A DNA stretch of 64,000 bases from an uncultured Verrucomicrobiae bacterium. Lineage in GTDB: Bacteria; Verrucomicrobiota; Verrucomicrobiia; Chthoniobacterales; JAFAMB01. The stretch spans positions 1,158,286 to 1,222,285 of the forward strand of contig CAVXLD010000001.1 in assembly GCA_963762565.1 (NCBI GenBank), given 5' to 3'. Each line of letters begins with the position of its first letter. The first letter of the stretch is position 1. Positions 1 to 64,000 of this stretch are shown piece after piece. Under the pieces are notes generated by a model that did no database searches, was not told the origin of the DNA, and saw nothing but the letters and a program-made list of their open reading frames with translations. The translations under genes were made by a program, and so were the position numbers.

Positions 1-622
1 TCTGCCACGAGCGCTCGATAAATACCCATGCGCCGATAAGACGGCGCCACCCTCCTCCGAAAAGCAGGCCAAAAGAACTCGGTAACCCAATTTCCAGGCG
101 GGCCGAAGCGGCGATCTCGGCAGAAACATAAGCAACGTAGAGCGCCAGGTCCGGATCGCTGAGCCGATCCGAATAGGCTGTACGCTGCCAAGTGTCCAGT
201 CCGCCGAACGCTTGCTCCGATGCCTTCAAAAAGTCTTCAAGTTGTTCCTCTGTCGTGACCCTGCGGATATCGACATTGCCCGCGGTCGACGCCTGCACCT
301 CATTCGCCAAATCAAAGATCATCAATGTTCCCGCAGCGTCCGGCTCGAATCCTTCCTCGGCGAGGCAACCGGAAATCTCGGCTGGAGAATCATGCTCGTA
401 GACTCTCCACATTAACTTCTCACCTCGTGATCTAAAGTGGGCAGCCTGGCTAGCCACGGCTTGGCGCACCGTACTTGGAGTTAGCTCCCAACAAGAAATG
501 AAGTTGAAATAACCCGTTAAACAGACAACGCCGTCCGCTCGCTCAACCACCAGCCCCGGTGGCGCTTTGGGGTTGGCGCGCACTTCCGCGTCATATTGGG
601 CCAGCACACGCGCGAGATCCAC
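1..622 (-). CDS. GNAT family N-acetyltransferase (partial, 3' end off window)
   Basis: Own minus-strand translation; absent from the ORF track because there is no stop in the window. Reads ...VERADGVVCLTGYFNF...MWRVYEHDSPAEISGCLAEEGFEPD...GGGVAPSYRRMGIYRALV, a GNAT acetyl-CoA motif region. Candidate GTG start at 622. Confidence 0.55.
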   Translation of the reverse strand, partial: MDLARVLAQYDAEVRANPKAPPGLVVERADGVVCLTGYFNFISCWELTPSTVRQAVASQAAHFRSRGEKLMWRVYEHDSPAEISGCLAEEGFEPDAAGTLMIFDLANEVQASTAGNVDIRRVTTEEQLEDFLKASEQAFGGLDTWQRTAYSDRLSDPDLALYVAYVSAEIAASARLEIGLPSSFGLLFGGGWRRLIGAWVFIERSWQ

Positions 623-771
623 AGTATCAGTTTACCCGACGTCAAGCTCTAGAGGAAGGGGCGCTTCACCGGGGTCGCGTCTATACCAAACCTGACTGGC
701 TTCGCTTGTCAGGGCCAGCTTGCGGCGCCCCTGTTGCTCGTTCCCATAAGGGACCGTTCACTCGTAGACCA

Positions 772-937
772 CGGTCGTGAATTGGGGACAGGTCAACGGT
801 CGTGAATTGGGGACAGGTCAATAGTCTGCAAGGACAGAGATCTGAGTAGGGACAGGTCAACTGTGTTGGTTGCCGCGTAAGCCATTACGCGTGAGCACGT
901 GCCGTCAATTGGTTCGCAAAATGGCTGACCCGTCCCC
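772..937. repeat. REP cluster: 25-bp unit CGGTCGTGAATTGGGGACAGGTCAA x2 (772-796, 797-821), REP at 849-860, degenerate inverted REP at 925-937
   Basis: Direct reading. GGGACAGGTCAA core at 784-796, 809-821 and 849-860. CTGACCCGTCCCC at 925-937 is in the opposite orientation. Confidence 0.8.
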
Positions 938-1053
938 TTTCTTCTCTGCAAAACACATTTAAACAATACGCGCTCTCACTCGAGTCCGGACGTCCGTAAA
1001 ATCCGTTCGCTAATTAATTACCGGCCACGCCGGGCGCCGGCCTAATGACTCAC

Positions 1054-1182
1054 CTATCGCCGGCGCTTCCGAGATCCGCGAGAGCCTTTTGCGATGGCCC
1101 GAAATGCCAAGATTGACGCAAGTAACGCCACCACGATCAGGGCACACAACAAGAGTGCCGATGACGCTTGGTCTCCGAGCAT
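1054..1182 (-). CDS. Possible 42-aa small membrane peptide (hydrophobic helix plus Arg-rich tail)
   Basis: Own translation: MLGDQASSALLLCALIVVALLASILAFRAIAKGSRGSRKRRR. Too short for the ORF track. Lies between REP clusters. No RBS verified. Confidence 0.2.
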   Translation of the reverse strand: MLGDQASSALLLCALIVVALLASILAFRAIAKGSRGSRKRRR

Positions 1183-1246
1183 CTGCGCGAAGTTTGATTC
1201 CATAGAGTGACACTCAGTAAAGCGGTTTTCCAGGGACCGTAAGAAA

Positions 1247-4495: not shown

Positions 4496-4656
4496 GAAAG
4501 ATCACAAGACCACAAAGGTAACCCTGTCGCACCTCGCTGCGGGCAAGTTAGTAAAAGTTGTACAGTCGCTTCGAGAGTGCCTGCTACACTCGCCTCCTCT
4601 AAGTCAGTAGAACACCAACCTCTTCTGTCTTTGTGACCTTTTCGTATTGTGATTTG
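4496..4656. repeat. Word-hairpin element (arms GATCACAAGACCACAAAGG / CTTCTGTCTTTGTGACC)
   Basis: Inverted purine-rich and pyrimidine-rich arms around a spacer of about 100 bp, read directly. Confidence 0.6.
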
Positions 4657-4718
4657 AGGTTCTAAAAGCGGGAAGAGTCACGTTTCTAACAGCCACGATA
4701 GCGGCAAAACAGGTATTT

Positions 4719-4867
4719 CACAGAAGATCACAAAGAACAGATACTTTGAACAGGAGGTAAGGGAGGAAACAGAGATAGAAGGTCGAGCTTAGCGCCAAGT
4801 AACCCTCCGTTGCCTCTGTTATCTCCTGTTTAAAATCCGTCTTTGTGGCCTTCGTGACCTTCTGTGG
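4719..4867. repeat. About 150-bp word-hairpin element, same family as 20250-20409
   Basis: Left arm CACAGAAGATCACAAAGAACAG..TTGAACAGGAGG..AACAGAG. Right arm CTCTGTTATCTCCTGTTTAAA..GTCTTTGTGGCCTTCGTGACCTTCTGTGG. The loop contains AACCCTCCGTT in both family members. Confidence 0.8.
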
Positions 4868-4984
4868 ATGATTTCTTTTTTGCGGTCGTTGGTCACTCTT
4901 CTCATTCTCTGTCTTACCCTTGCGACTCTGCGAGATTTTTTTCTTCTTGGTTGCAGCTTACCCATACTAGGATCCGCCGCGGCT

Positions 4985-5512: not shown

Positions 5513-5615
5513 GAATGACAAATCACAAATGACAAATGACAAACGAAGGCACTCCGCGGATGACGCCCGTCGTGAATTTCGTGAATCTGTCATCTCGTTC
5601 GTCCATCTGCGGTTG
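5513..5615. repeat. Word-hairpin (heptamers GACAAAT/CACAAAT vs GTGAATTTCGTGAATCTGTCATC...CATCTGCGGTTG)
   Basis: Direct reading. Confidence 0.6.
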
Positions 5616-6924: not shown

Positions 6925-7152
6925 AATCCGTTCGGCGTTCGGCGTTTGGCGTTTGGCGTTGGTCGGCGGTCGGCGGTCGGCGGTCGTTGCTTAGGACCGT
7001 CAGTTAGGGATAGGTGGACTGGGGCTTTTAATCGTGCTCGTGCTCGGGATTTGGAAGGCGAGGCGTGGGCGTATGGGCGTATGGGCGTATGGGCGATGCG
7101 GCGAATTGCTCAGCGTTTCGCCAATTTGCTATCTGCTATTTGCTATTTGTAG
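6925..7152. repeat. Short tandem repeat arrays (TTCGGCG/TTTGGCG/GTCGGCG 7-mers; GCGTATGG 8-mers; CTATTTG 7-mers)
   Basis: Direct reading of 6930-6988, 7063-7095 and 7121-7152. Confidence 0.8.
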
Positions 7153-9142: not shown

Positions 9143-9463
9143 AAGATCGCAACGCGGCCGATCCTTCTAAAACCTTGAAACCGGACGCCTCGGTTTGCGG
9201 TAGAAAGCTAATACCTATGGATTTTTTGTTTTTGGCCGCGGCGCACCAGCTATCAGCCAGCATGCCTCAAGCGTATCCGACATGGACGACTAGTAGCGGG
9301 GTCGAGATTATGGCGGACATAATTAGTGGCTTCCTCACGCTTGGTTTCGGCATCTTTATTTACCGGCTGCCCCCGGAAAAGTGAAACCAAGACCTTTCGT
9401 TTTCGCCCGTGAGAAATCCTCGCGTCCTTGTCCTTTGTGGCCTTCTGTGCTGATGGTGACTCC

Positions 9464-10299
9464 ATGATCTTCAAAGGTCTGTTCGGGCCAATGGCTGCTC
9501 TGATTGGCCTGGGGTTCTCTTTCCCGGCGGTCGCTGAAGCCGGTGGACCGGTTCGGCTTTACAGTGCGGACCGTACCCATAACGATTTTTGGGAAAACAG
9601 GGGAAGTCATCGCGATCGAACAGGAGAACGGAGCGATGGGCCTCCAGGTTAAGGAATCGGACGGATTCAATGTCGAGGTGGTTAATCAGTTGAAGGAACC
9701 AACCAGTATCCATTGGCACGGCTTGATCCTACCCGCGTTGATGGACGGAGTTCCGTTTGTGAGCCAGGATCCAATTCCTCCCGGTGAGACTTATCATTAT
9801 CAGTTTGCGTTGAAGCAAAGTGGAACTTACTGGCTCCATTCTCACTATGGTCTACAGGAACAATTGTTAGCCGCCGCGCCGTTAATCCTGGAAAGCGAAG
9901 CGCAAAACGCCAAGGCCGATGAACAATACACAGTGCTCTTGAGCGATTACTCGTTTACGTCGTCTGCAAAAATCCTCGAACGATTGAAGGGCGGTATGCC
10001 GGTTCAGCGGCAACCAACTTCTTCGTGAACACCGGAGCGTTGACCAGCCAGTTAACGGCGGTTGATGGAAAAGATATCGAGCCGGTATCGGGAAATTATT
10101 TTCAGTTAGGGATCGCGCAACGGATCGATCTGCTGATGAAAATCCCGGATAAAGGGGACGCTTTTCCTATTCTGGCCCAGCGTGCCACATCCTCTATCAC
10201 GCGGCGGTGGGCATGTTCACGGTTCTCAAATACGACGGCGCCGATACCAAGTTTTGGCAACCCGAGAAAACGCTGACCGAGCTTAGGGGAGAGCGTTGA
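9464..10299 (+). pseudogene. Multicopper oxidase (CopA-like) relic with frameshifts and large internal deletions
   Basis: Three frames. Frame 1 has the signal MIFKGLFGPMAALIGLGFSFPAVAEA. Frame 2 has domain 1, TSIHWHGLILP...GTYWLHSHYG. Frame 3 has a domain-2 fragment, TAVDGKDIEPV...RIDLLM, and the C-terminal CHILYHAAVGMFTVLKYDG (HCHxxxHxxxGM) directly after AFPILAQ. The whole is only about 280 codons against 500-600 expected. Confidence 0.75.
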
Positions 10300-11015: not shown

Positions 11016-11130
11016 CCCGCAGATTAACGCAGAGCCTCGCGCAGAGGACGCAAAGGACGGAGAGGTCCAATCGTCTTCTTGTTTGCGTCCGCTGCGAACT
11101 TTGCGCGAGGTTCTGCGTTAAGCGATGCGG
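11016..11130. repeat. Word-hairpin (CGCAGA words)
   Basis: CCCGCAGATTAACGCAGAGCCTCGCGCAGAGGACGCAAAGG versus CTTGTTTGCGTCCGCTGCGAACTTTGCGCGAGGTTCTGCGTTAAGCG. Confidence 0.6.
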
Positions 11131-12755: not shown

Positions 12756-12773
12756 TGAGCAAACGATTGCGCA
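12756..12773. promoter_or_regulatory. LacI-type operator TGAGCAAACGATTGCGCA
   Basis: Imperfect palindrome centred on CG. Exact reverse complement of 16996-17013. Confidence 0.65.
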
Positions 12774-12858
12774 ATCGATTAGCCGAACTTTTAGGCCCAC
12801 TTTTTCAGGTTGTCAAGAATGACCATTGACACTCGCCCAAAAAGGCCTAAAGCTGGCC

Positions 12859-12884
12859 GCAATCGATTGCGCAACTGTTTGCGC
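12859..12884. promoter_or_regulatory. Second LacI-type operator region (GCAATCGATTGC perfect palindrome + TGCGCAACTGTTTGCGC)
   Basis: Direct reading, about 60 bp upstream of the binding-protein gene. Confidence 0.55.
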
Positions 12885-13894: not shown

Positions 13895-13976
13895 CGACGA
13901 CCTGCGGCCAAAACGAACCCGTGAAAGGTGAAAGGTGAGAAAGCCTCGAGTGTTGACAAGACTTTCACCCGTAGCA

Positions 13977-14058
13977 GGACGAAGATAACGAAGGGTGCTT
14001 TAGCCCGGATTGTTATATAGAATCGTTGCCCTTCGTTTGCTTCGTTAGCTTCTGTAAG
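13977..14058. repeat. Word-hairpin (GGACGAAGATAACGAAGGG / GCCCTTCGTTTGCTTCGTTAGCTTCTGTAAG)
   Basis: Direct reading. It explains the spurious N-terminal extension of ORF 14026. Confidence 0.7.
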
Positions 14059-14103
14059 ATCTCTTCACTAGCTACTGTAAGATTTCAGCCTCCCGCCCAT
14101 CGG

Positions 14104-15682: not shown

Positions 15683-16783
15683 ATGGGCGACACCGCCAGC
15701 GCCACCGGCGAACGAACCGAGCAATTAACTGATCCAGTTTTTATGAGACCGAACCCTTATCCCACTTCGACTGATGCATCGCCCGGGGCCGGCATCAAGT
15801 CGAACCTCGGGGGGCCGAGCCGGCGAGCCGGTCAGCTCCGCGAAATCATCGAGAACAGTTTGGGATTGGTGGTCGTTCTGGTCTTGCTGATCGTCCTATT
15901 TAGTTTTCAAACCGCCCATTTCTTCTCGGCAACGACCTTCGAAGCGATCGCCAACGAGATTCCGACGGCCATTTTCATCGCCATTGGTATGACCTTTGTT
16001 TTGATCATCGGCGGGATAGACCTGTCGGTTGGATCAGTCCTGGCATTGGGGTCCGGCTTGTTAGGTGTTGCTATTGTGCACTGGCATTGGCCGCTCTGGG
16101 CCGCGATTGGGTTGTGCGTATTGTCCGGTGCTCTTTGCGGACTGCTGAATGGGTTTCTAACCATCCGCTTTCGCCTACCTTCCTTTATCGTAACGCTCGG
16201 CCTGATGGAAGCGGCTCGGGGAGCGACCTATCTGGTCACAAATTCCCAGACCATGTATATCGGTTCCACGATTGAAGCGGTGGACAACGCAACTTTATTT
16301 GGGCTTTCGTTGCCCTTCTTGGTTGCGATCGGTTTTGCCATCATCGCTCAATTTATTCTCACTGGAACCGTCTTCGGTCGCTATGCCATCGCTCTCGGAA
16401 CCAGCGAAGAAGCGGTCCGCCTTTCCGGAATTGACACTCGACCAATAAAACTAGCGGTATTTACCTTAAGCGGTGCTTTAGCCGCTGTGGCCGGAATTTC
16501 TTATTGTGCGCAACTTTCCGCGGCCGATCCCAACGCGGGCAATGGGTTTGAGCTCGCGGCTATCGCGGCGGTGGTGATCGGTGGGACCAGTCTGATGGGA
16601 GGCCGTGGTTCGGTCATTAATTCATTGTTTGGAGTTCTGGTAATTGCGGTACTGGAAACCGGGCTAGCTCAAATCGGAGCCCAAGAATCGGTGAAACGGA
16701 TGGTAACCGGAGCCGTGATCATCATCGCCGTTATCGTCGATTTTTATCGGACGCGCCGGGCGGAAGCGAAGGCGAGGAAGTAA
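15683..16783 (+). CDS. Sugar ABC transporter permease (RbsC-like)
   Basis: Multi-TM protein. IGGIDLSVGS and GGTSLMGGRGS motifs. Start uncertain (alternative ATG at 15743). Confidence 0.8.
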   Translation: MGDTASATGERTEQLTDPVFMRPNPYPTSTDASPGAGIKSNLGGPSRRAGQLREIIENSLGLVVVLVLLIVLFSFQTAHFFSATTFEAIANEIPTAIFIAIGMTFVLIIGGIDLSVGSVLALGSGLLGVAIVHWHWPLWAAIGLCVLSGALCGLLNGFLTIRFRLPSFIVTLGLMEAARGATYLVTNSQTMYIGSTIEAVDNATLFGLSLPFLVAIGFAIIAQFILTGTVFGRYAIALGTSEEAVRLSGIDTRPIKLAVFTLSGALAAVAGISYCAQLSAADPNAGNGFELAAIAAVVIGGTSLMGGRGSVINSLFGVLVIAVLETGLAQIGAQESVKRMVTGAVIIIAVIVDFYRTRRAEAKARK

Positions 16784-16903
16784 GCAGTAAGCAGTAAGCG
16801 GTAAGCGGTAAGCACTAAGCAGTTCAGGAGCCAGGAGCGAGAATCCAGGTCAGGAGATCTGGCTCCTAATACTGATTACTGATTACTGATTACTGATTAC
16901 TTC
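16779..16903. repeat. Heptamer-array hairpin: (CAGTAAG/CGGTAAG)x6 ... CAGGAGCC words ... (TACTGAT)x4
   Basis: Direct reading. Both arrays have a 7-nt period and are partly complementary. Confidence 0.8.
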
Positions 16904-16995
16904 TCCCAGGCGTCAAGGTGCGCACGGACAGTTAGTCTGCCAAATGCAAAGAATGATTGACCTAATTAACTCCACGCGTTATCCAAGAGAACGCT

Positions 16996-17013
16996 TGCGC
17001 AATCGTTTGCTCA
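16996..17013. promoter_or_regulatory. LacI-type operator TGCGCAATCGTTTGCTCA upstream of the LacI gene
   Basis: Exact reverse complement of 12756-12773. Confidence 0.65.
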
Positions 17014-17077: not shown

Positions 17078-18103
17078 ATGAAAGATGTTGCTGAGTTGGC
17101 CGGCGTGTCGGTAACCACCGTTTCCCATGTGCTGAACAAGACCCGGTATGTAGACCGGAGTTTGGTTCGGCGAGTTGAGGCCGCGGTTAAGACCCTTGGG
17201 TACCAGCCGAATGCGTTAGCGCGAGGATTGCGCCGAAAAGAAACCCGAATGCTTGGCGTGGTGGTACCGGATAATTCCAATCCATACTTTGCTGAGCTCG
17301 CTCGGAGCATCGAAGATGCGTGTTTCGAAAGCGACTATAACGTCATCCTCTGCAATTCCGACGAAGACCCGACTAAAGAACGCGCTTACTTATCTCTGTT
17401 AGCGGAGAAGCGCGTCGATGGAATTGTTTTTGTCGCTTCAGGCGATGATCGCGCCGGAGTACAGGCCGTTCTGCAACAGAAAATTCCACTGGTGCTTTTG
17501 GATAGAGAGCTCAAAGGCACCAAGTGCGATGCGATTCTAGTAGACAATCGTTCTGGCGCGCGTCGGGCGACCCAACATTTGATCCAGGGAAACCACCAGC
17601 GGATTGGTTGCGTCTGTGGTCCCAAGAATCTGGCTTCAGCTAAAGAACGGCTTCAAGGTTACCAAGACGCTTTCACGGAGGCGCGCCTGCGCATGGATCC
17701 CAAATTGATTCAGCCCGGAGACTTTCACATCGAAGGCGGATTTACCGCCATACAATCGCTGCTGGATCTGCCAACTCGAATCACTGCGGTCTTCGTAGCA
17801 AACGATTTGATGGCGATAGGCGTCTTAAGAGGAATCGCAGCCCGCGGTCTACGCGTGCCAGAAGACATCGCAGTCGTGGGATTCGACGGCATTTCCCTGG
17901 GAAGATACACGCAACCGCCACTAACAACGGTGGCGCAACCAATTCGTAAAATTGGAAAGTTGGCGACCGAGCTAGTGTTATCGCGAGTAAACGGCGAGCG
18001 AGAGGAACCGCGAATTCATCGCTTAGAGACGAACCTGGTTGTTCGCGGGTCTTGCGGGATTACACAGAAGGGCACGAAGACAAATCTTTTGAACAAGAGC
18101 TAA
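17078..18103 (+). CDS. LacI family transcriptional regulator
   Basis: MKDVAELAGVSVTTVSHVLN HTH followed by a periplasmic-binding-fold domain. Confidence 0.85.
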   Translation: MKDVAELAGVSVTTVSHVLNKTRYVDRSLVRRVEAAVKTLGYQPNALARGLRRKETRMLGVVVPDNSNPYFAELARSIEDACFESDYNVILCNSDEDPTKERAYLSLLAEKRVDGIVFVASGDDRAGVQAVLQQKIPLVLLDRELKGTKCDAILVDNRSGARRATQHLIQGNHQRIGCVCGPKNLASAKERLQGYQDAFTEARLRMDPKLIQPGDFHIEGGFTAIQSLLDLPTRITAVFVANDLMAIGVLRGIAARGLRVPEDIAVVGFDGISLGRYTQPPLTTVAQPIRKIGKLATELVLSRVNGEREEPRIHRLETNLVVRGSCGITQKGTKTNLLNKS

Positions 18104-18339
18104 CAGCCAGCCTGAGAACAGCTTCGTGGGTTTGCAACCACCTCTTGGTGTCGATCCAAATCAGACGTTGTGTTAGTGCCGGTAAAAATGCTTTAGGCAG
18201 GAATAGAGCATCTGAACTCGACCATCTGCTCTATTACATCTAGCTTACATTCGCATTACAAATACATAATAATATCATGTTGCTTTTGCCATTGATATCG
18301 GATCGATGTTTGTTAAGTTTGCAGGGTAATGAGCAGAGA

Positions 18340-20161: not shown

Positions 20162-20249
20162 TTATTATCCCACCGAACTCTCGTTGCGCCTATCTCTGCG
20201 CAACAATCGAAAAAAGTTAAATCCAAGAAAGAAAAAGCGATCGATCCTT

Positions 20250-20409
20250 CCACAGAAGATCACGAAGGACCCAAAGACAGACGGCTTGAACAGGAGGAAG
20301 CAGGGGCAACAGAGGTAAAAGACCGGCCCCCGAAAGAACCTTGTGGGGGAACCCTCCGTTTCCTCTGTTAGCTCCTGTTCAAAAGATTTGTCTTTGTGGT
20401 CTTCTGTGG
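20250..20409. repeat. About 160-bp word-hairpin element, same family as 4719-4867
   Basis: CCACAGAAGATCACGAAGG..TTGAACAGGAGG..AACAGAGG / CCTCTGTTAGCTCCTGTTCAAAA..GTCTTTGTGGTCTTCTGTGG. Confidence 0.8.
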
Positions 20410-42500: not shown

Positions 42501-42503
42501 TTT

Positions 42504-42551: not shown

Positions 42552-42556
42552 TTTTG

Positions 42557-43783: not shown

Positions 43784-43834
43784 TTCTGTATAAACCGTTG
43801 GCGCACTTCGCCTTTCTCTCTACAGATAAGCATT

Positions 43835-44749
43835 ATGCCATTGCCAACCGATGAGAAACTGCTGGCTCTAAGCCAGGATCTGCTCAAGCAATTCGATACC
43901 ATCTTCGGTTTACATCCAGGTTTTCGCGCGGCGCACGCTCGCGGGACCATGCTCACCGGTACTTTTACGCCTGCTCCTGACGCTGCATCCCTGACCAGAG
44001 CTCCCCATATCACCCGCGAATCGACTCCGGTTACCGCACGATTCTCTAGCTCAACCGGCATTCCGCTGTTGCCGGACAACGATCCGAATGCCAACCCGCG
44101 GGGGTTAGCCATCCGGTTTCATCTCGGCGAGCATGTGCACACGGACATTGTGAGCCATTCGATCGATGCCTTCCCTGCGAGGAACGCGCAGGAATTTCTA
44201 GAATTTTTGCGGGCGGTTGCAGCCAGCGGACCCGACGTTCCGTCACCGAAACCGGTTGAGATATTCTTGGGTTCACATCCGGCAGCGCTCGCTTTTGTAC
44301 AAGCTCCGAAGCCGAGTCCGGCCAGTTTCGCCAAAGAAAACTTCTACGGAGTGACGGCGATGCGCTTCATCAACAAAGAGGGCGCCAGCCGTTACGGTCG
44401 ATACCGGATTCTACCTGACGCCGGCGTCGAACATCTCGATCCGGAGATTACAAAGGACAAAGGGCCAGATTTCCTTTTCGATGAGTTAAGCGAACGGATC
44501 GCCGCGGGGCCGATTAGTTTTCAAATCTTTGCTCAGCTCGCGAACGAAGGTGACGAGGTCAACGACGTCACCGTGCATTGGCCCGAAGATCGACCTTTAG
44601 CGCGGCTCGGCCAGATCGTTTTAACTGCACCGGCCGAAAATGACGCCCAAGAGCAGAAGAAAATTATCTTCGATCCAATCCCGCGAGTCGACGGGATCGA
44701 GCCATCGGATGATCCATGTTGGAGGTACGTGCCGCGGTTTATCTGCTGA
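43835..44749 (+). CDS. Catalase-related peroxidase (copy 2), C-terminal frameshift
   Basis: A 1-bp deletion at 44716/44717 (GATCCATGTT vs GATCCACTGTT) changes the last 22 aa to 13 unrelated aa. Also A->G and A->T substitutions. Confidence 0.7.
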   Translation: MPLPTDEKLLALSQDLLKQFDTIFGLHPGFRAAHARGTMLTGTFTPAPDAASLTRAPHITRESTPVTARFSSSTGIPLLPDNDPNANPRGLAIRFHLGEHVHTDIVSHSIDAFPARNAQEFLEFLRAVAASGPDVPSPKPVEIFLGSHPAALAFVQAPKPSPASFAKENFYGVTAMRFINKEGASRYGRYRILPDAGVEHLDPEITKDKGPDFLFDELSERIAAGPISFQIFAQLANEGDEVNDVTVHWPEDRPLARLGQIVLTAPAENDAQEQKKIIFDPIPRVDGIEPSDDPCWRYVPRFIC

Positions 44750-44783
44750 GCGGACGGCGACGACGCCAAGCGTAAAAAGGATT

Positions 44784-45027
44784 CACCACAAAGACACGAA
44801 GAACACAAAGACAATCCCAACCGCAGATGAACGCAGATTTAGAAGGGACCGTGCCACGCGCTCAGCGAAAGATGGCGCCACGAATGCACACGAAGCATTC
44901 GACGCAGCTTTGGCCGGTCTTTAGGTGGTTTGACCAATTCGTGTGCACAACGTGGCTTTTTTATCTGCGTTAATCCGTGTTCATCTGCGGTTGGCCTTTC
45001 GTTCGTGTTCTTTGCGCCTTTGTGGTG
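44784..45027. repeat. Nested word-hairpin (copy 2)
   Basis: As 41514-41755, with 4 small differences. Confidence 0.8.
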
Positions 45028-45040
45028 AGTGCACTGCGGA

Positions 45041-45772
45041 TTACTCCCGGCGGGCCTCGAAGTAGGTGTTACAGATTTCGAGGATGATGGTATTGGGTCC
45101 TTCGACCAAAACGGTTTCACCCGGCACCGCCTCACTGCCGTTCAGGGATAGTTCGGCGATCTTCACATTCGGGTGATTAATGGTGATCTGCTTAACTGCA
45201 GATGCCGCGATCCCGAGCTGGTTAAAGTCCACGTGCGATCTGCTACCGGAATCGCCCTGAGCAAACTCTTGTGCGCCGAGCATGTTCGTTGAGCTCCCCG
45301 AGCTTGGTACATTGGTCGTTTTCCAACGGAAACTGTCGGCGCGATATTCTATCTCGGTGCCTACCAGGGTTTGCGCCTGTTTGCTGTCCAGGCACGTGAC
45401 CGTATCGGCAGGCAATACTTTATGGACGATCCATTTCCCAAGCAGCTCCGGAGGGATTTTACCGACGGGCGTGGTATTCGATCCTGCTTGGGCAACTAAC
45501 TGTTCAAGAAAATCGGCTCGCGCTTTTGTGGCCTGAGCTAAACAGGCAGCATCTTTGCCACATTTTTGATCTCGTTGCTTGAGCCAGTCCAATTCCTGCC
45601 TGCGCAACTCCGCCAGTTTAGCTGGGTTACCACGGAGTTGTGCCACTCGCTGTTGGTAGGCCTGATTAAGGCGGGCGTCTTCCTGACTAAGCCCGGCTTC
45701 TTGCGCGGCCGAGATAGTGGCGCAGGCGCCGGCTGCCAATAGGATGATGCCCTTATGTAACCTGCATTTCAT
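45041..45772 (-). CDS. Secreted DUF1311-domain protein (copy 2)
   Basis: 280-aa ORF identical to copy 1. Confidence 0.65.
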   Translation of the reverse strand: MKCRLHKGIILLAAGACATISAAQEAGLSQEDARLNQAYQQRVAQLRGNPAKLAELRRQELDWLKQRDQKCGKDAACLAQATKARADFLEQLVAQAGSNTTPVGKIPPELLGKWIVHKVLPADTVTCLDSKQAQTLVGTEIEYRADSFRWKTTNVPSSGSSTNMLGAQEFAQGDSGSRSHVDFNQLGIAASAVKQITINHPNVKIAELSLNGSEAVPGETVLVEGPNTIILEICNTYFEARRE

Positions 45773-45828
45773 TTTCCACGGTTCCGACCGAGTCGGCCTC
45801 GCAAGCGAGGCAGCGCTCCACGGTTTTG

Positions 45829-46488
45829 CTAGCTGGGGAGAGCGAAACAAACGATCTCGTTTACCGCTCGATGGTTTGACCAAAAGTTCGATCCGTCAAA
45901 AGCCAATGAACGGCATGGGAACGGCACCTTGGCTAAGTCCTCGATGCGGGATGAGCCGGAGGATTGTAAATTCAAACGGGCGATGCTCCAATCTTCGTTC
46001 CCCTGCTCCGTTCCACGCAGAACGTAAATCGCTCCCCCGAAATAGGTGTGCCCGCAAATCTCAGCGCCAATGTCGTACGTCTCCAGGATACTTCCGCTAG
46101 GATCGAGTTTCAGAATACGATGCTTATACCATTGGCTAAGATAGACGTGGCTGCCGTCGTAGCTCAGGTAGGATCCGGTAAACTCCGGACAAGCAACCCG
46201 ATCGGTTTCGGAGAATCCACTATCGGAAGAATAACGTCGCAGATACCGATCGTCCGCGGCTCCTTCTCCGATATTGAAACAGAGCGCTTCACCGGTTGAG
46301 ACAGCCGCCCATGGTATTCCTGGCGCTTCGGTTTCTTTGAATACGCGCAGACTTTCCGGCTCAATCCCGTAAATACGCCGTAAGTCACGCGAGCCCATCC
46401 ATAAGGCATCGTTGTGCCAAGCTAACGCTTGAGGTGTCACGGCAGGGGAAGCGACGCGCCTGCGTTCTTTAATTGCTGGTAGCGACAT
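45829..46488 (-). CDS. Beta-propeller-like hypothetical protein (copy 2)
   Basis: Identical to copy 1 except S->W (46310 vs 43038). Confidence 0.4.
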   Translation of the reverse strand: MSLPAIKERRRVASPAVTPQALAWHNDALWMGSRDLRRIYGIEPESLRVFKETEAPGIPWAAVSTGEALCFNIGEGAADDRYLRRYSSDSGFSETDRVACPEFTGSYLSYDGSHVYLSQWYKHRILKLDPSGSILETYDIGAEICGHTYFGGAIYVLRGTEQGNEDWSIARLNLQSSGSSRIEDLAKVPFPCRSLAFDGSNFWSNHRAVNEIVCFALPS

Positions 46489-46493
46489 GGGGG

Positions 46494-46640
46494 GTTCGGG
46501 TTGCGGGTTAGGAGTCACGGGTTTCGAGTTACGAGTTATGCGTTGTGGGTTGGAACTTGCAGGTCGGCGAGCGCACCGAATGTCTCGGCTTCGACAACGC
46601 CAACCCGTAACCCGCAACCCGTAACTCGCAACTCCTAACC
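46494..46640. repeat. Word-hairpin of GGGTTAC/GAGTTAC-type heptamers
   Basis: GGTTCGGGTTGCGGGTTAGGAGTCACGGGTTTCGAGTTACGAGTTATGCG.. versus CCAACCCGTAACCCGCAACCCGTAACTCGCAACTCCTAACC. Its left arm is the 3' edge of the duplicated unit. Confidence 0.75.
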
Positions 46641-46641
46641 T

Positions 46642-47736
46642 CTACCTGGCTCCGGATGACTCGCGTATCACCAGTTTGCTGTCTAACAAAATGTCGCGTA
46701 CGGGCATATCCGGCCTGGCAATCCGCTCCAGCATAGCACCAACCGCAGCCGTGCCGATCTCCCGGCAGGGTTGATGGACAGTGGTCAATGGTACCGGCAA
46801 GAGCTTGGCATATTCGACATCATCAATTCCCACAATTCGGACATCCGACGGGATGCGATAATTTAGATGCATCAAGGTATGCATTAGACGCCCAGCCGTC
46901 CGATCATTTGCGCCGACAACTCCGTCCGGCTCTAGCAGCTCCATTAAATGGCGAACCTCATCCTCGTCACCGGTCTCCAAGCTTTGAACCAGCGCTGGGT
47001 CGATCGGAGCACCAAACACAAACAGAGCTTCTCTATAGCCAGCAATCCGCGCTGCCACCGTCGAAGCGGAATTCGAATAGGCCAGAAAAGCGATTCGCCG
47101 GCAGCCCAACTTGAGCAGATGCTCGGTGATCATGTAGCCGGCCCGGCGGTGATCGATTCCAACTAGATCGTGCCTGCTCCGTTCCGGATAGGGCAAGAAA
47201 CAGCGATCAATCAATACGACCGGTATACGTGCCCGTTCGAGAGCAAAGATGATACGCTGATTGGTTTCGTCGCTCTCAGCGCCTCGCTCAAGTGGGGCAA
47301 AGAAAACGCCGCCCACTTTCTTGCGAATATATTGTTGGCAGAGATCCCAGGTTTGATTGGATTTGGTCGCAGGATCCGGCGTCAAATTGCCCCAGAGCAA
47401 AGCATGCTTAGACGCTTGCGGCGCCTCAGACATCCCCTGCCGGATCGGACCAAAGATTTCCGTGTCGGCAACGTTCGGAAACAATAATCCGAACAGCAAG
47501 CCAGCCTCATCCACCGGTCCACTTCCAACATAGGTGCCAGACCCCGGTCGCCGCTCAATCAGGCCGGCCTGTTGCAACTCCCGCAGGGCTCTACCGACTG
47601 TAATTCTGGAAGTCTCAAATCGTTTGATGAGAGCCGCTTCACTGGGAAGCTTTTGACCGGGTTGATACCGCCCCGAGACGATATCCGTTTTTATCGTCTC
47701 GAGCACCTGACGGTATTTGGGTATGCTGGCGCTCAC
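46642..47736 (-). CDS. GntR-family HTH regulator fused to a LacI/PBP1-type sugar-binding domain
   Basis: LPSEAALIKRFETSRITVGRALRELQQAGLIERRPGSGTYV plus a periplasmic-binding-fold C-terminus. Confidence 0.8.
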   Translation of the reverse strand: MSASIPKYRQVLETIKTDIVSGRYQPGQKLPSEAALIKRFETSRITVGRALRELQQAGLIERRPGSGTYVGSGPVDEAGLLFGLLFPNVADTEIFGPIRQGMSEAPQASKHALLWGNLTPDPATKSNQTWDLCQQYIRKKVGGVFFAPLERGAESDETNQRIIFALERARIPVVLIDRCFLPYPERSRHDLVGIDHRRAGYMITEHLLKLGCRRIAFLAYSNSASTVAARIAGYREALFVFGAPIDPALVQSLETGDEDEVRHLMELLEPDGVVGANDRTAGRLMHTLMHLNYRIPSDVRIVGIDDVEYAKLLPVPLTTVHQPCREIGTAAVGAMLERIARPDMPVRDILLDSKLVIRESSGAR

Positions 47737-47818: not shown

Positions 47819-48587
47819 CCACACTGATTTAATCTAATGTGCCCTGGAATCACTTCCAGTACTGCTATATGTGATCCTTAGCTCCAATTGAGAGCAACAA
47901 GGTTCTTTAAACAAAATCGCAAGACTGTGGCTCAGAGGGCTCCTTTTGGCAGAATTTCTGGGCATTCCGGAAAGCGTTTCGTTATACGGACGCCCAATCC
48001 AGGATGCTGAGAAAAACTAAGAAAGGTCAAATATGGAAGGAATAGTATTCGCGTTTTTTGTTCTGAAGAATGGATATGAGCGGCCGGCCAGGAACATTCC
48101 TGAGCCTCAGTTTCAACCGTTCAATCTTGCGGCGCTTAGATTGCCGAAAGACACGGATGAGACAACCCGCGGTGCCAAGGCAAATCGGCAACCAGCGTTA
48201 GCAGTTTCAGCGGCGTGCTGAGCGCCTCTGTTGTTGAGTAACAATGATCGTCGGGGTTGCACTCAAGGTTAGTCTCCTGTCCGTCCGGGCAGGTTCGTCT
48301 AGTCCTAGTGCAATTCCGATTTGATCGGTCGTCCCGTAAGGACTGAACGATCGTAGCGGCTCGACTGAGCTCGCCGAAGTCCTGGCAATTTCTTGCCAGG
48401 GAAGTGTGTGAAAAGGCACCGTCCCAGCGGGACGGTATGAGATACGGTTAGCGATGTACTTAGATTTCGAGCTATGCCGATCCGCAGCTTCAGACCCGAT
48501 CCAGCGTCGGACTATGCCCAAATTAAAGACCTGTTCGCGGCGCGCGGGGACGCGCGCCCTCCCCCACCTCGTGCTCTGACTGTTCCG

Positions 48588-52902: not shown

Positions 52903-53062
52903 GACAGAAGATCGCGAAGACTAAATAATGCACAAGAAGATCACAAAGGCCACAAAGACAGAAATTCTTCATAGAAGGTAACGAAGCAAACGAAGGCTAA
53001 GGCGACAGGCTCCAGGCCATTTGCTGACCTTTTCTTTCGATACCTTCGTGCCTTCTGTAAAA
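52903..53062. repeat. Word-hairpin (GACAGAAGATCGCGAAG..ATCACAAAGGCCACAAAGACAG..AACGAAGCAAACGAAGG / ..TACCTTCGTGCCTTCTGTAAAA)
   Basis: Direct reading. Confidence 0.7.
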
Positions 53063-53095
53063 ATTGGGGTCTTTTTTCACCCCCCACTGACCAAT

Positions 53096-61400: not shown

Positions 61401-61683
61401 CAAAATTGACCCTCAACTTCATCTGGCCGGTATTCGAGTTGAGGGAATACATGTAGTTTAACTTATCGACCCCGCTGATCTGCTGCTCGATCGGCGTGGC
61501 CACGGATTGCTCCACGGTGACGGCATCTGAACCGGGGAAGGTTGCCGAAACTACGATTTCAGGAGGAGTTATGTTCGGATAGAGCGAAACCGGCAAAAAT
61601 AATAGGCAGGTCAGACCGACTATTATTGTCAAAATCGAGAGGACAATAGCGAGGATCGGTCGCTGAATGAAAAATCCGGACAT
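58495..61683 (-). CDS. RND efflux permease (HAE1 family), paralog 2
   Basis: 1062 aa. Roughly 60-65% identical to paralog 1 by eye. MdtB/MdtC-like tandem arrangement. Confidence 0.9.
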   Translation of the reverse strand: MSGFFIQRPILAIVLSILTIIVGLTCLLFLPVSLYPNITPPEIVVSATFPGSDAVTVEQSVATPIEQQISGVDKLNYMYSLNSNTGQMKLRVNFDENSDPKTDQVLTQMRQSQASAQLPPEVVSQGISVQKSFAAPLMLIALRSPDGRYSSQFLANYAYINLNDQLTRVPGISNVQVFGSGQYAIRIWLKPEQLARLNVTVSDVTNAVQQQNAVNPVGFAGGEPVPNGQEFTYMAVARGQLTTPEQFGSIIVRQSTNGAVVRISDVASVELGSQVYSTYARLNGQPSAVLAIYQLPGINGLTAAEGVKKRMAELKARFPRGMDYVIALDTTLPVTAGIEEMVKTLLEALGLVVIVVYLFLQSWRATLIPLLAVPVSLIGTFIFFPLLGFSINTLSLFGLVLAIGLVVDDAIVVVEAVERHIHEGLAPKEATLAAMKEITAPVIGVALVLGSVFVPTAFIPGITGRLYQQFAVTIAVSVLLSAINALTLSPALCAMLLRPRQERTGLLQRFFSWFNRLFSRVTDGYVRTSGLLIRRTGLTLILLFAFGAVAIFFGQQLPISFLPDEDQGYFYINLQLPQAASLQRTDEACRKIEALLAQTPGVRYTTAIAGFSLLSNVQTTYSGFFFVTLDPWGERKKITEQYQALKGLLNLKLLQFPEGTVFGFSPPAIPGAGVAGGVSFVLENRIDKGAEFLARNVDVFLDAARQQPELGRVITTLLPSVPQVYFDVDRAKALSQGVALTDIYNTLQSFLGGSFVNYFNRFGRQWQVYVQAGGESRTRADQVGQFYVRNQNNNAVPLSSVVRVRREFGPEFTMRYNLFRSAQIQAIPAAGYSSAQAMSALERVFAQTMPAEMGYDYLGMSFQEKKAQQGAPPALIFGFSLLFVFLILAALYESWWLPVSVLLSTPVAVFGSLGALYLRRMVTAAFLPPILVQIENNVYAQIGLVMIIGLVAKNAILIVEFAKTEYERGANLVDAALAGARLRLRPIVMTSFAFIVGCIPLALASGSGAVARQVLGTGVIGGMLAASLLAIFLIPAGFCMVETVAAFVGRKHRGRQQPLADL

Positions 61684-61726
61684 AGTCAGTGCCGTACTAG
61701 GCGCTTAGAGGTCACCACGGATCTCC

Positions 61727-62904
61727 TTATTGGGATTGTACCGGACGCTCCGGCTTCCATTCAGTTGGCTTAACCAACTCGTTGTCGCGCACTTTCTGTA
61801 AGCCTTCGGCTACGACCCGCTCCCCTGGTTTCAATCCGTCTTCGACCACCCAAAGAGAGCCTACCCGTTCGCCCACCTTGACCGTCCGGATCTCCGCTTT
61901 ATTGTCGCCTCCAACGACGGCTAGCTCATAACTCGTCTGCAATTCGTTTACCGCACGTTGCGGAACAAGCAATGCCCCATGTAGTGACCTGACGGTGACT
62001 CGGACGCGAACAAATTGGCCTGGGCGTAAAATATTGTCAGGATTAGGAAATAGGGCGGCCAGCCGGATCGTACCGGTCTGGTTGTCTACCTGGCGGTCGA
62101 CGGCGGAAAATTTTCCCTGAGCGGGTACAGTGAACCGTCGGCCAGAATAATCTCTACTGGCGGCGCCGGCGCAGGTGGTACGGTTCGCTTCGATCCGCTC
62201 CTGCGCGACTTTCAGGTAGTCCTGCTCACTGATTTGAAAATAGGCCTTGATCGGATCCACGGTCGAAATCGTCGCGAGCGGATTAGCATCGCTTGGTCCC
62301 ACGAGATCGCCAATCCCCGGATTCGCGATCCCGGCAACGCCACCAATGGGTGCCGTGATTTTCGTAAATCCAAATTCAGCTCTGCCTGTCGCACGGCCGC
62401 CTCCTGAGCCTTTACTGGGCTTTCGCCGCAGTATTGGCCTGAACCGCATTATCTAGGTTTTGTGCGCTTTCGACTTTCTGTTCGAAGAGTTGGGTTTCGC
62501 GTTTTTCGGTCTGTTCGGTTTGAAGCTGGTTCGCCTGGGCTTGGCGAGGCCGCTTTTGCTTGTTCTACCGCTGCTTCGTAGAAGCTCGGATCGACCTGAA
62601 ACAGCAGATCGCCTTGCTGGACCACCGTTCCCTCTTTGTAATTTTGCGAGATCAGGTATCCGGAGACGCGTGCCCTGACATCTGCGTCTACCGATCCATC
62701 CAAGGACCCAATCCATTCCCGCACTACGGGAACATCTTGCTGAATGGCTTCCGTCACGAGGACCTCCGGAGGTCCCGAGATGATGTTATTAGTTCCGGAT
62801 TTCGAGCATCCCGCGAAAACAGCAGCGAAAAGGCCGGCTATGGGCTGTACCCCACAGAGGCCTACGAAAAGATGGAATCTCAAAATGCGGGGGAACGGCT
62901 TCAT
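61727..62904 (-). pseudogene. RND periplasmic adaptor (membrane fusion protein), at least three frame breaks in this assembly
   Basis: Lipoprotein-like N-terminus AVFAGCS. ARVSGYLISQNYKEGTVVQQGDLLFQVDP, then the coiled coil continues in another frame (QAQANQLQTEQTEKRETQLFEQKVESAQNLDNAVQANTAAKAQ). AQEAAVRQAELNLD is in a third frame, and FTKITAPIGGVAGI... is in the 61727-62449 frame. Confidence 0.75.
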
Positions 62905-63565
62905 AAAAAGAAAACGCGCAAAGAACTCCTGCGAACCTAGCCATCGCTGGATTCACAGATGAGGGCGGCATCCTGCCTTATTTCTTCGAGCGATGCCCTA
63001 GACCACGCGAACGCCTGATAAATCAAGGGAAAGCAGGAAAAGGAAGCCGGACGAAAAATTCTTCTCCGAGGTGACCGATTTGCTATCGAAAATCAGTTTT
63101 TGAGACAAGCCTTATCTACAGGCCGCCCTGTCCATATTCCGAAAAAGCGAACCCGGAAGCTCCAGTCCGCTATCACCGCCACCAGCAAAAATCCCTACGC
63201 TGCAAATGCAGCGAGTCAACCGAGAAGAGATAACAGCCGGAGATGAACGAAGATTTACGTAAAACGGCAAGAGCTGGAAGAGCGGAAAGAACGCAAAAAA
63301 AAGCGCCGGTAGGGCGAAAGGGGTGACACTGCGGCGAGGGCGGGTCCTCGGGATGTCTTATCGCCTGAACTCCGGCAACTCCTCGAACTCCTTTTCTTTG
63401 CCTTCTCTGCGCTCTTTTGTGGCTATTCGGCGGGTCTAACTGGGGCTTCCGTTCGTGGCTAGCACAATCGATAGAATTCCAAAGTGGTATCACGAACTTC
63501 GCGAGATGCGGATCTTTTAAAATACCACATCTTCCGCCATGCTCAGCTCAAATTGAGCTGACAAG

Positions 63566-64000
63566 ATGGAGATATTCGATCCCTTCCGCACGCGTGTGCT
63601 AGCTGCTTTACTAATCAGTTCTTGGGCGATACCAGGCGCTGCCCAAAGCAAATCAGACGCCGCCGGCACCCCCAGTAAAGAAACCGCTGACGCAGATGAT
63701 GGTCAGCACGATTTCGATTTCGAATTCGGAGTTGGAAAGTTCATCTTAAACGGCTGCTGCAGCCGCTAACCGGTTCCAACCAATGGGTCAACTCGATGGC
63801 ACCTCCGTCGTGAGGAAAGTCTGGGATGGACGCGCTAATCTCGGAGAGTTAGAGGTCACTAATCCTGAAAGTCATATCGAAGGTCTGAGTTTGCGCTTGT
63901 ACAACCCACAAACCCATCAGTGGAACATTTACTGGGCAAACCGAGGAGACGGCAACTTGGGCACTCCTCCGATGATCGGTCAGTTCAGGAAGGGCCGCGG
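63566..64000 (+). CDS. Secreted protein of an uncharacterised family (HDFDFxxGxW...), partial, two frame breaks
   Basis: Signal-like N-terminus. QHDFDFEFG | WKVHLKRLLQPLTGSNQWV | LDGTSVVRKVWDGRANLGELEV...YNPQTHQWNIYWANRGDG is read across three frames. Runs off the window. Confidence 0.5.

Follow-up and report, generated by a model that had tools for sequence, protein, structure and literature searches.

The window analysed here, a 64,000-nt stretch of contig CAVXLD010000001.1 (assembly GCA_963762565.1), contains intergenic inverted repeats whose arms are strings of short words of 7-10 nt, and the question raised by this locus is whether these word hairpins are signals that serve the neighbouring genes or repeats that spread on their own account. 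Our results indicate that they look like an undescribed family of selfish repeats and not like gene-control signals. Tentatively, and with less than even confidence, we favour the reading that these word-array palindromes are a selfish or neutral dispersed family of non-coding repeats, regenerated by a sequence-specific process that leaves no target-site duplications (TSDs).

The words listed in a sequence-only reading of the window occur at 9.7 per kb in intergenic and 1.1 per kb in coding DNA. They are thus about nine times denser in spacers, which contradicts, within the window, the possibility that they are not enriched in intergenic DNA. In the spacers 93 words were observed against 13.3 +/- 3.6 expected from a second-order Markov model of the spacers (about seven times), a test that is partly circular because the words were picked after the fact. 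When 15 proposed hairpins were folded and compared with dinucleotide shuffles, 12 gave z-scores of -3.3 or lower on at least one strand, with the strongest folds at 34630-34768 (z -12 to -14), 11016-11130 (-10.5) and 41513-41756 (-8 to -10). Three of the proposed examples were weak or not significant, namely 4496-4656 (z -1.4/-0.8), 5513-5615 (+0.6/-0.7) and 52903-53062 (-3.3/-1.5). Independently of the word list, inverted 6-mers were in significant excess in 12 of the 42 spacers of at least 50 nt and in one of 42 size-matched coding controls, and 6-mers repeated in tandem at 6-11 nt were in excess in 13 spacers and no control; 20 of the 42 spacers showed at least one of the two. Tandem Repeats Finder (TRF) detected arrays of period 7, 8, 9 and 10 at the proposed places and at several others. 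Thus, word density, folds, the unbiased 6-mer test and TRF all bear out the claim of a real intergenic word-repeat system. Its extent, however, had been set too high, as inverted repeats in at least 25 spacers and in most spacers. We count two-armed word hairpins in about 15 spacers, 12-13 of which are statistically supported, i.e. in about a third of the spacers of the window, and a word array of any kind in about 24 of the 42. A sliding 120-nt fold scan undercounts long elements because its window is too short, and the elements at 41514-41755 and 44783-45028 are not independent, both lying inside a 3.29-kb tandem duplication.

An arm consists of sequence-specific words lined up in a short, ordered array, and an opposite-strand copy of this array, facing inward, forms the other arm. 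In the core family, a T-rich flank is followed by ACAGAAGG and then by two AACGAAGG or CACRAAG words at a 9-nt pitch, and the canonical element reads TT(T/G)N-ACAGAAGG-N-AACGAAGG-N-AACGAAGG, followed by a loop that ranges from 6 nt to over 400 nt and by the same string mirrored. Three words on each side were found in 47 of 55 paired elements (median length 90 nt), a proportion favoured by the search pattern, which demanded three words on one arm. The mirrored arms span about 26 bp, with word positions that are invariant or nearly so among 25 aligned elements, and arm pairs face inward in 48 cases and outward in 11. The pitch is 9-10 nt in both the ACRAAG and the CGCAGAT families. In CAG-containing vocabularies, the T-poor, purine-rich array is always the 5' arm on either strand; the proposed rule that a T-poor arm precedes an A-poor one therefore holds for these vocabularies, but it is reversed at 46494-46640. 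Many elements are also nested: outer CACAGAAG/CACRAAG arms enclose an inner element that opens with a T-run and ACAGAAGG or AACAGGAGG at 4713-4873, 20245-20414 and 25205-25636, and CGCAGAT words lie inside CACAAAG words at 41513-41756.

Despite the strong predicted stems, the two arms of an element behave as separate samples of one vocabulary. In 26 canonical elements, the complementarity between arms at the free positions between words was no higher than column composition predicts. Over all columns, 84.3% of cells were paired and 82.1% after shuffling, and 44-64% of the cells in the spacer columns between words were unpaired. Changes on both sides were found only at the family level, as A to C in CACRAAG elements and as TTGA/TCAA versus TTTT/AAAA flanks. 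Mismatches between arms comprise 171 transversions versus 101 transitions, and no clustering of wobble pairs by strand was found among them (p = 0.32). The arms therefore pair because their words are invariant, and the numbers bear out the claim that they match by vocabulary rather than by alignment, as free positions barely covary. At the element ends, across the 55 elements there was no excess of direct repeats of 2-8 nt at offsets of -2 to +9, and the flanks, often CA...TG and GA...TC, are complementary rather than direct.

Two further features concern single words and outward-facing arms. A GC-rich mini-hairpin of about 22 nt, CCCCG-N7-8-CGGGG plus T(A/G)AA or TGG, stands directly after the CAG of a word at 24499-24516 in the window, at 12384, 14843 and 20442 in the syntenic contig L115 described below, and at 7773 in an Akkermansiaceae contig (L102). 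At 20468-20497, the L115 copy carries a 22-nt GC mini-hairpin which is missing from the window copy; the mini-hairpin has the look of a very small mobile element that inserts site-specifically into the words. In eight loci of one Verrucomicrobiae metagenome-assembled genome (MAG; L002, L016, L019, L037, L063, L068, L082 and L091), a dispersed repeat of about 480 nt, with copies about 90-98% identical, has the same words facing outward at its centre (CTTTGTG..CTTCTGT, about 60 nt, ACAGAAG..CACAAAG).

Two metagenome contigs syntenic with the window, L117 at 99% and L115 at 97% nucleotide identity, allowed the evolution of individual copies to be followed. Relative to L115, substitutions amount to 3.66% in hairpins and 3.87% in other intergenic DNA, and relative to L117 to 0.58% and 0.59%, respectively; word-hairpin copies evolve neutrally for substitutions. 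In contrast, indel positions relative to L115 make up 3.0% of hairpin and 0.13% of other intergenic sequence, about 20 times more, and the indels are whole words (7, 9 and 14 nt in arms, relative to L115 and L117). Whole-word indels of 9 nt occur at 11016-11130 and 18061-18130, and the two arms of 16779-16903 differ between strains by exactly 14 nt and 7 nt. All units within each arm of this last element carry the same arm-specific mismatch, which indicates that each arm grew by duplicating its own units. One orthologous site has an outer arm common to the window and L115 around different nested inner elements, and at 13895-14063 the order of arm and arrays is rearranged relative to L115. Positional conservation could be followed for two hairpins, both in the sugar ATP-binding cassette (ABC) operon. 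Neither the hairpin in the spacer between the binding-protein and ATPase genes nor that after the permease gene is present in relatives at 91%, 84% and 80% protein identity, which have other repeat types in nearby spacers, and in a further relative (L119, 81%) the same operon positions hold unrelated GC-rich hairpins. We infer that hairpin potential is not kept locus by locus by selection on RNA structure, and that the elements are not regulatory signals specific to gene orientation.

Although single copies come and go, the words themselves are widely distributed. A first scan of a 596-Gb genome collection used CACAGAAGRYCACRAAG, a pattern too degenerate for that size, so that most matches were due to chance and only those in the Planctomycetes-Verrucomicrobia-Chlamydiae (PVC) group are informative; PVC loci account for 28 of the 114 among the matches listed, and have the same word grammar in hairpins. 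Such hairpins were found in Akkermansiaceae and Luteolibacter (L102, L043), Opitutales (L088, L067), Terrimicrobiaceae (L098), Kiritimatiellia (L026, L057) and one Planctomycetaceae MAG contig (L004), and in a Chthoniobacterales locus (L017) which also has the nested AACAGAG inner module of the window; two Acidobacteria MAG contigs (L013, L105) carry 5' arrays. A stricter pattern with 21 specified bases matched at least 120 metagenome contigs and 32 IMG/VR contigs. CACRAAG, CGCARAG, AACAGRAG and CGCAGAT words co-occur in matched contigs though they were not selected by the search, and word-element copies in L102 and L043 have a loop in common. Thus, the system is not lineage-specific as had been proposed, since several verrucomicrobial orders, Kiritimatiellia and the Planctomycetaceae contig all have the ACAGAAGG/ACGAAGG/CACRAAG grammar. 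The GACARAT, GCAGTAA and GGGTTNCG vocabularies, among the loci examined, occur only in close relatives of the window. In three related IMG/VR contigs (L132, L133 and L149), a solo ACAGAAG/AACGAAG arm begins right at the stop codon of an open reading frame (ORF) and is followed by a CCCTCAA heptamer array and then by the next start codon; word elements are therefore also present in contigs classified as viral.

The elements are indifferent to the orientation of the genes around them. In the window, word hairpins occupy 4 of 10 divergent, 4 of 9 convergent and 8 of 23 co-directional spacers, so that the claim that all spacer orientations are used holds. At the elements of the metagenome set, the adjoining gene ends are 3' ends in 35 cases and 5' ends in 29, and single arms are distributed 21/21/20/18 over the four contexts of orientation relative to neighbouring genes. 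A bias of orientation, proposed as a check, is thus seen neither in the window spacers nor in the metagenome set. No hairpin matched Rfam at the gathering threshold or at E <= 1, so that the elements fall outside the families catalogued there. Several functional candidates were rejected. Intrinsic terminators do not fit, as the flank is T-rich at the 5' and A-rich at the 3' side with no U-tract after the stem and as divergent spacers are not depleted (4/10 versus 4/9 convergent); canonical terminator-like sites as a whole are not enriched in the window, where a consensus scan found 17 and expected 23. As promoters, the arms have hexamer spacings that misfit sigma-70 (judged by eye), and promoter-like sites are fewer than in shuffled sequence. 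A Shine-Dalgarno or translational-enhancer role was rejected because start codons follow the purine arm in 9% of cases versus 17% at random positions, a crude control. Strand-specific selection on RNA was also rejected, since the minimum free energies (MFEs) of the two strands bear no relation to the direction in which adjacent genes run and wobble pairs are unclustered. Because copies are unconstrained, unconserved in position at the loci compared and blind to orientation, a cis-regulatory role at each locus is disfavoured.

The copies show no purifying selection, no conserved position at the loci compared and no preference of orientation, and yet different orders retain the same ordered, polar three-word arm; together, this suggests that the family is renewed over and over by a process that recognises sequence and leaves no TSDs. 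A candidate route is single-stranded hairpin transposition by an HUH-type enzyme, as for REPINs, i.e. paired repetitive extragenic palindromic (REP) sequences, and terminal inverted repeat (TIR) elements, although another copying route may be used. After arrival, whole words are gained and lost through replication slippage and nested elements are acquired at the centre; the elements decay to solo arms, and over the divergence found inside a single genus they are lost or replaced. Hairpin potential would then follow from the mirrored words and may serve mobilisation, and the GACARAT, GCAGTAA and GGGTTNCG heptamer arrays of the lineage probably reflect the same slippage on other seed sequences. 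A bolder proposal, possible but in our view doubtful, is that the three-word arm TTKN-ACAGAAGG-N-AACGAAGG-N-AACGAAGG is the recognition site of a PVC-wide machine that writes or copies word arrays into intergenic DNA. It might act by TSD-free transposition of elements of about 60 nt or by a templated reaction that adds words to both ends of a DNA break, and the latter, if true, would account for the inward polarity, the independently sampled arms, the solo arms, the central nesting and the absence of TSDs.

Several observations weigh against a selfish or neutral family. No autonomous element or mobilising enzyme was found in the 1.83 Mb examined, which is a small and biased sample. Only two arm pairs lie 0.6-8 kb apart, and these enclose seemingly ordinary gene-sized, unannotated ORFs. 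A search for a cognate gene of the REP-associated tyrosine transposase (RAYT) kind, which the sequence-only reading had suggested, led elsewhere: the only Y1 transposase of the window, a 333-aa ORF at 1496-2497 on the minus strand with an IS200-like Y1 transposase domain (Pfam PF01797, E = 1.5e-07), is flanked on both sides by GGGACAGGTCAA repeats and not by word arms, and two Y1 homologues among the loci could not be linked to word arms. No clean pair of empty and filled sites was seen for a whole element. A check for presence/absence polymorphism among close relatives thus yielded the whole-word indels in L115 and L117 but not a clean whole-element case, the sole candidate being a 217-nt insert in L115 with ragged ends. 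The words might also be conserved across orders because a host factor binds them, and the proximity of hairpins to stop codons (in the metagenome set, a median distance of 48 nt) would fit some role at mRNA 3' ends. As for distribution, abundance and taxonomic breadth are only roughly known because the scans were seeded on the pattern itself, the degenerate pattern of the first scan led to many chance matches, and MAG binning may misassign the Planctomycetaceae and Acidobacteria contigs.

That proximity to stop codons also speaks for RNA hairpins selected by the host and transcribed with neighbouring genes as 3'-end stabilisers, factor-dependent terminators or RNase III sites. Besides that metagenome median, many elements of the window begin 0-90 nt past a stop codon (16779, 41513, 46640, 29646), the predicted stems are strong, one hairpin sits at the classic malE-malF REP position (binding-protein/ATPase) where L119 has an unrelated GC-rich hairpin, and such a role would suit a lineage seemingly without canonical intrinsic terminators, none being enriched in the window. 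We nevertheless regard this explanation as unlikely, given that covariation is almost absent with about half of the free stem positions unpaired, that wobble-compatible mismatches are neither in excess nor strand-clustered, and that a U-tract is missing between a T-rich 5' and an A-rich 3' flank. Furthermore, divergent spacers are occupied equally often, the substitution rate equals that of other intergenic DNA, the hairpins are missing at the same operon positions in the 91% and 84% relatives, and structure alone would not preserve identical words across orders. Words kept across orders, together with invariant words, free spacer bases, arms that act as independent samples of a vocabulary, fixed word order and polarity, solo arms and a 9-10 nt pitch close to one helical turn in the ACRAAG and CGCAGAT families, would be expected if the arrays were binding sites on double-stranded DNA for a host protein, nucleoid-associated or a small cooperative binder, with the inverted array as the functional unit. 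Ribbon-helix-helix proteins such as the omega repressor and MetJ, which bind tandem heptads of 7-8 bp, are precedents. However, individual copies are under no purifying selection, the checked copies are not conserved in position, inter-arm distances of 6 to more than 400 nt are unlike those of operators, unrelated vocabularies at 7-, 8-, 9- and 10-nt pitch in one genome would need several proteins, and no candidate protein was identified, so that we consider binding arrays quite unlikely.

A purely mutational origin, in which slippage of 7-10 nt units together with template switching or inverted duplication makes the elements without any factor or function, is plausible for the lineage-specific heptamers. 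Whole units are inserted or deleted between strains of 97-99% identity at about 20 times the indel rate elsewhere, unit variants are homogenised within each arm of 16779-16903, many arrays are unpaired, some vocabularies occur only in the lineage of the window, and heptamer arrays, including inverted pairs, exist in other bacteria without a known mechanism (PMC4692102). As an account of the whole family it is distinctly improbable, since it fails on the identical polar three-word arm, with ACAGAAGG outermost by the T-rich flank, across orders and metagenome contigs; in addition, template switching would give exact complements, which the arms are not, and the copy families that share a loop are left unexplained. 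Classical MITEs (miniature inverted-repeat transposable elements), i.e. deletion derivatives of a DDE insertion sequence with word arrays as multi-site terminal inverted repeats, would account for conserved arms of about 26 bp around variable intergenic interiors of 6-400 nt and for elements nested in one another, and multi-site transposon ends are indeed known from Tn7, Mu and the IR/DR Tc1 elements. But the lack of any 2-8 nt direct duplication in the 55 elements at offsets -2 to +9 largely refutes such an origin, the frequent CA...TG and GA...TC flanks exclude a TA duplication, and no transposase lies between distant arm pairs (two pairs, ORFs unannotated). MITEs are therefore highly improbable.

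Among the individual elements of the window, 4713-4873 is a nested word hairpin with outer CACAGAAG/CACAAAG arms at 4719-4745 and 4838-4867 and an inner TTTGAACAGGAGG..AACAGAG module at 4745-4774 and 4805-4834 (MFE -62/-64 kcal/mol, z -6.0/-7.7; inverted repeats I11 and I12). Its architecture is that of 20245-20414 (MFE -82, z -7.6; 7 substitutions relative to L115, counted from the alignment) and of L017 3510-3690 in Chthoniobacterales. Composite nesting is seen at 25205-25636, where outer CACAGAAG/CACAAAG/CACGAAG words enclose an inner TTTTACAGAAG...CCTTCGTTACCTTCGTTGCCTTCTGTAAAA element with a loop of about 300 nt (z -7.2/-5.7; I10, I17); the inner module found in L115 at this site is a different one. 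The hairpin at 41513-41756 has three levels, CACAAAG/CACGAAG outside, CGCAGAT in the middle and GCACACGAAGC inside (z -7.9/-10.2; I4), and 44783-45028 is its duplicate in the second copy of the 3.29-kb duplication. This tandem direct duplication (39980-43261 and 43246-46533; 99.2% identity between copies) contains, per copy, a DUF3291 gene, a catalase-like gene, the three-level hairpin, an LprI-domain gene and an ORF of unknown function.

Hairpins of CGCAGAT type are present at 34630-34768, with 3 + 3 words at a 10-nt period in a divergent spacer of 174 nt (MFE -83/-89, z -12/-14; I3, 88% complementary), and at 11016-11130, built of CGCAGAT/CGCAGAG/CGCAAAG words (MFE -73, z -10.5), where L115 is without one 9-nt word of the 5' arm. 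In the sugar ABC operon, the binding-protein and ATPase genes are separated by an AACGAAG-type hairpin at 13977-14058, with CCTTCGTTTGCTTCGTTAGCTTCTGT as its 3' arm (z -2.8/-3.1; inverted and tandem excess both significant); it is absent in the 91% and 84% relatives, and L115 has a rearranged version whose 5' arm is a full TTTTTTACAGAAGGCAACGAAGG. In the convergent spacer at 23445-23560, a AACGAAGG-type hairpin has its outer word CTTCTGTAAAA displaced to 23553 (z -3.3/-4.9; both excesses again significant). The polarity of the GGGTTNCG / CGNAACCC hairpin at 46488-46644 is reversed, with the A-poor arm first (z -4.6/-5.6; I7, I8; TRF). Heptamers make up 16779-16903, which begins inside the stop codon of the permease gene and is absent in L120 (z -5.3/-4.1; TRF); its 5' arm is (A/G)GTAAGC x6.4 and its 3' arm TACTGAT x4.6, every unit with one mismatch. 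The GACAGAT/GACAAAT hairpin at 21030-21103 fills a divergent spacer of 75 nt (z -4.0/-8.3) and has extra units on both arms in L115 and on one arm in L117.

Other sites are degenerate, asymmetric or single-armed. At 18061-18130, a degenerate element (ACAGAAGGGCACGAAGACAAATCTTTTGAACAAGAG...CTTCGTG) overlaps the 3' end of the LacI-family gene; one more 9-nt word is present in L117, and the L115 sequence at the site is different. A long purine-word array (ACAGAAG, CACAAAG x2, AACGAAG x2) with a short pyrimidine arm, CCTTCGTGCCTTCTGTAAAA, lies at 52903-53065 (z -3.3 on the plus strand only), and 4496-4656 has few matching words, at its ends only. The GACAAAT array at 5514-5543 within 5513-5615 (4.3 copies) is real (TRF; tandem excess p = 0.003), and its complementary region (ATCTGTCAT...) is degenerate. 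Solo arms comprise the pyrimidine-type CTTGTCCTTTGTGGCCTTCTGTG at 9423-9450, kept in L115 with one substitution in the outer word, ATCTGTAAATCTGTGTCCATCTGTGG of CGCAGAT type at 20468-20497, a GACAGAT/GACAAAT array of 5.4 copies at 29604-29646 (TRF; tandem excess p = 0.003), and a CGCAGAT arm at 24485-24545, in which the mini-hairpin CCCCGAAATTCTCCGGGG (24499-24516) is inserted directly after CAG and which has copies at two other L115 loci with 90-95% identity. Unpaired arrays were found by TRF at 6929-7149 (CGTTCGG x7.9, TGGGCGTA x3.8 and ATTTGCT x3.7) and at 37346-37406 (the 9-nt unit AACGCCGGG x6.4).

The window itself has a GC content of about 54% and ordinary bacterial genes, including the sugar ABC transporter, LacI and GntR regulators, a GH2 glycosidase, an Fpg-like glycosylase and catalase-like proteins. 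The nearest public protein matches are metagenome contigs and the more distant ones are labelled Verrucomicrobia, and judged from sequence its source is an uncultured Verrucomicrobiota lineage. Relative to L115, the window shows losses at ~10002-10183, at 12240 and at 21115-21154. Most of a multicopper-oxidase gene is lost, as are 743 nt of an FGE-sulfatase gene, which now forms two ORFs of 356 and 168 aa, and about 1.4 kb that comprised one gene as well as the 5' part of an FAD/NAD-binding gene.

Other repeats of the window are built differently. Copies of the GGGACAGGTCAA repeat lie at 785, 810, 849, 1247, 1320, 2621, 6285, 6684, 6742, 6769 and 8191, and the view that the word system is distinct from them proved correct. 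The only Rfam matches are two Acido-Lenti-1 motifs (RF01687, 50-51 bits, gathering 37) on opposite strands at 33463-33508 and 33654-33699, which make up the two extremities of an inverted repeat whose arms, 33463-33547 and 33615-33699, are 85 nt long and 79% complementary. By eye, similar CCCAGGGCTTTAGCCCTGGG sequences are found in spacers of L119, L120 and L124, and the motif thus behaves like a dispersed paired repeat in relatives. Another GC-rich family, CGGGAGGG..GCGTCC..CGCGCGCCGCG, forms inverted pairs in convergent spacers at 27505-27730, 38862-38983 and 48540-48575, and in L098 at about 7440. A 40-nt inverted repeat not built of words (36625-36664 and 36810-36849, 95% complementary) has its arms 145 nt apart. 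Palindromes of the form TTGCGCAATCG(A/T)TT at 12759-12780, 12861-12882 and ~16990-17010, upstream of the sugar ABC operon and the LacI-family gene, are kept in the relatives at 91% and 84% (equivalents in L120 and L124); they are probably operators unrelated to the word hairpins.

These results have implications beyond the window. Most frames of the arms contain few or no stop codons because the arms are T-poor or A-poor, and word arms therefore create false N- or C-terminal ORF extensions and small spurious ORFs in genomes of Verrucomicrobiota and related bacteria. With a model of the family, such artefacts would be removed from the gene calls of lineages that abound in soil and freshwater, and whole-word indels between strains of 97-99% identity provide natural high-resolution strain markers. 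Words that persist across orders despite neutral copies, without TSDs and without structural covariation, misfit the usual explanations; these features point to a copying or DNA-binding activity which, if it exists, should be discoverable by phylogenetic profiling.

How novel the system is depends on the level of description. The claim of an undescribed class stands insofar as the family is absent from Rfam and from the searchable literature, but elements of this general kind are known from Xanthomonas, Nostoc and the TAACTGA heptamers. Literature searches for the words returned only primer coincidences and no paper containing the word sequences. Resemblances to the Tn402 inverted repeat (TTTTCAGAAGAC), the 16S 3' region (GTAACAAGGTAACC), the Pho box (CTGTCAT) and Stowaway terminal repeats were dropped as probable coincidences. 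The ACAGAAGG/ACGAAGG system is in none of the three papers on short intergenic repeats compared below (PMC4692102, PMC4679880, PMC3733652).

REP, REPIN and TIR repeats of PVC bacteria, including the repeat-rich Opitutus terrae and Rhodopirellula baltica, have been surveyed by Di Nocera et al. (2013, PMC3733652), where the REPIN work of Bertels and Rainey (2011) is cited. Terminal repeats with a GGGGWSAS motif flank TIRYT genes (PMC3733652), and GGGGACAG of the window fits this motif. Like REPINs and TIR repeats, the word elements are extragenic, high-copy and TSD-free, form hairpins as inverted dimers with variable spacers, leave solo remnants and occur alongside repeats of other families, and by analogy these repeats, mobilised by Y1/HUH enzymes, would be their closest functional analogues. 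The proposal of a system similar to REPs or bacterial interspersed mosaic elements (BIMEs) is therefore apt as to niche, as shown by the other hairpins of L119 at the same operon positions, but the defining features of these classes are absent. The unit is not a small palindrome; arms consist of non-palindromic 7-10 nt words, and a hairpin needs both arms. The consensus lacks a GTAG/CGTC tag and has instead the outer word ACAGAAG(G) after TT(T/G)N. The RAYT-like gene of the window is flanked by a different repeat, no Y1 gene with word flanks was found, and the arm sequence is common across orders, in contrast to REPs that co-evolve with a lineage-specific RAYT. With MITEs, the elements have in common terminal inverted repeats, as mirrored arms of about 26 bp. 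Correia elements of Neisseria are likewise intergenic, are about 100-150 bp long with terminal inverted repeats and are co-transcribed as hairpins; they have a TA duplication and a conserved interior, whereas the word elements have no target duplication and unrelated interiors.

A different relationship is suggested by tandem heptamers. The TAACTGA heptamer occurs in Beggiatoaceae, Cyanobacteria and Bacteroidetes, its means of transfer not being known (MacGregor 2015, PMC4679880). Like the words described here, it is a specific short tandem word in spacers that spans distant lineages and has no known function, but it forms direct repeats, with a single indirect case, mostly a few nt upstream of starts, which suggests translational control, whereas the word elements are inverted pairs with no tie to start codons or gene orientation. 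In Nostocaceae, small dispersed repeats reportedly insert into heptamer arrays, as Elhai and colleagues are said to have described in 2008; this parallels the CCCCG..CGGGG mini-hairpin after CAG, a likeness by description only, as sequences and phylum differ. Cyanobacterial heptamer arrays carry the name STRR. One of the closest matches is provided by Xanthomonas (GGGAATC) and Nostoc (GGGGAYT), which have intergenic arrays of 7-nt units whose length varies between relatives, and Xanthomonas has 70-75 convergent, stem-loop-capable array pairs per genome (Rehm et al. 2015, PMC4692102). About 90% of these heptamer arrays are intergenic and their mechanism is not known, and the same paper cites Mrazek (2007) and refers to a reported excess of heptameric simple sequence repeats (SSRs) in many bacteria and to heptanucleotides in Calothrix (PMC4692102). 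The word elements resemble these arrays as intergenic 7-nt tandems and inverted pairs of strongly varying length with no mechanism known, and resemble long-unit SSRs in general as intergenic head-to-tail arrays of 6-11 nt with a unit number that varies between close relatives. The copy number of the core family, however, is not open-ended but fixed at 3 + 3 with a distinct outer word. Xanthomonas and Nostoc each have one G-rich, quadruplex-capable unit per genome in open-ended copy number, whereas the word elements combine several vocabularies of 7-10 nt, a fixed 3 + 3 arm with its own outer word, nesting, and words that are common to different orders.

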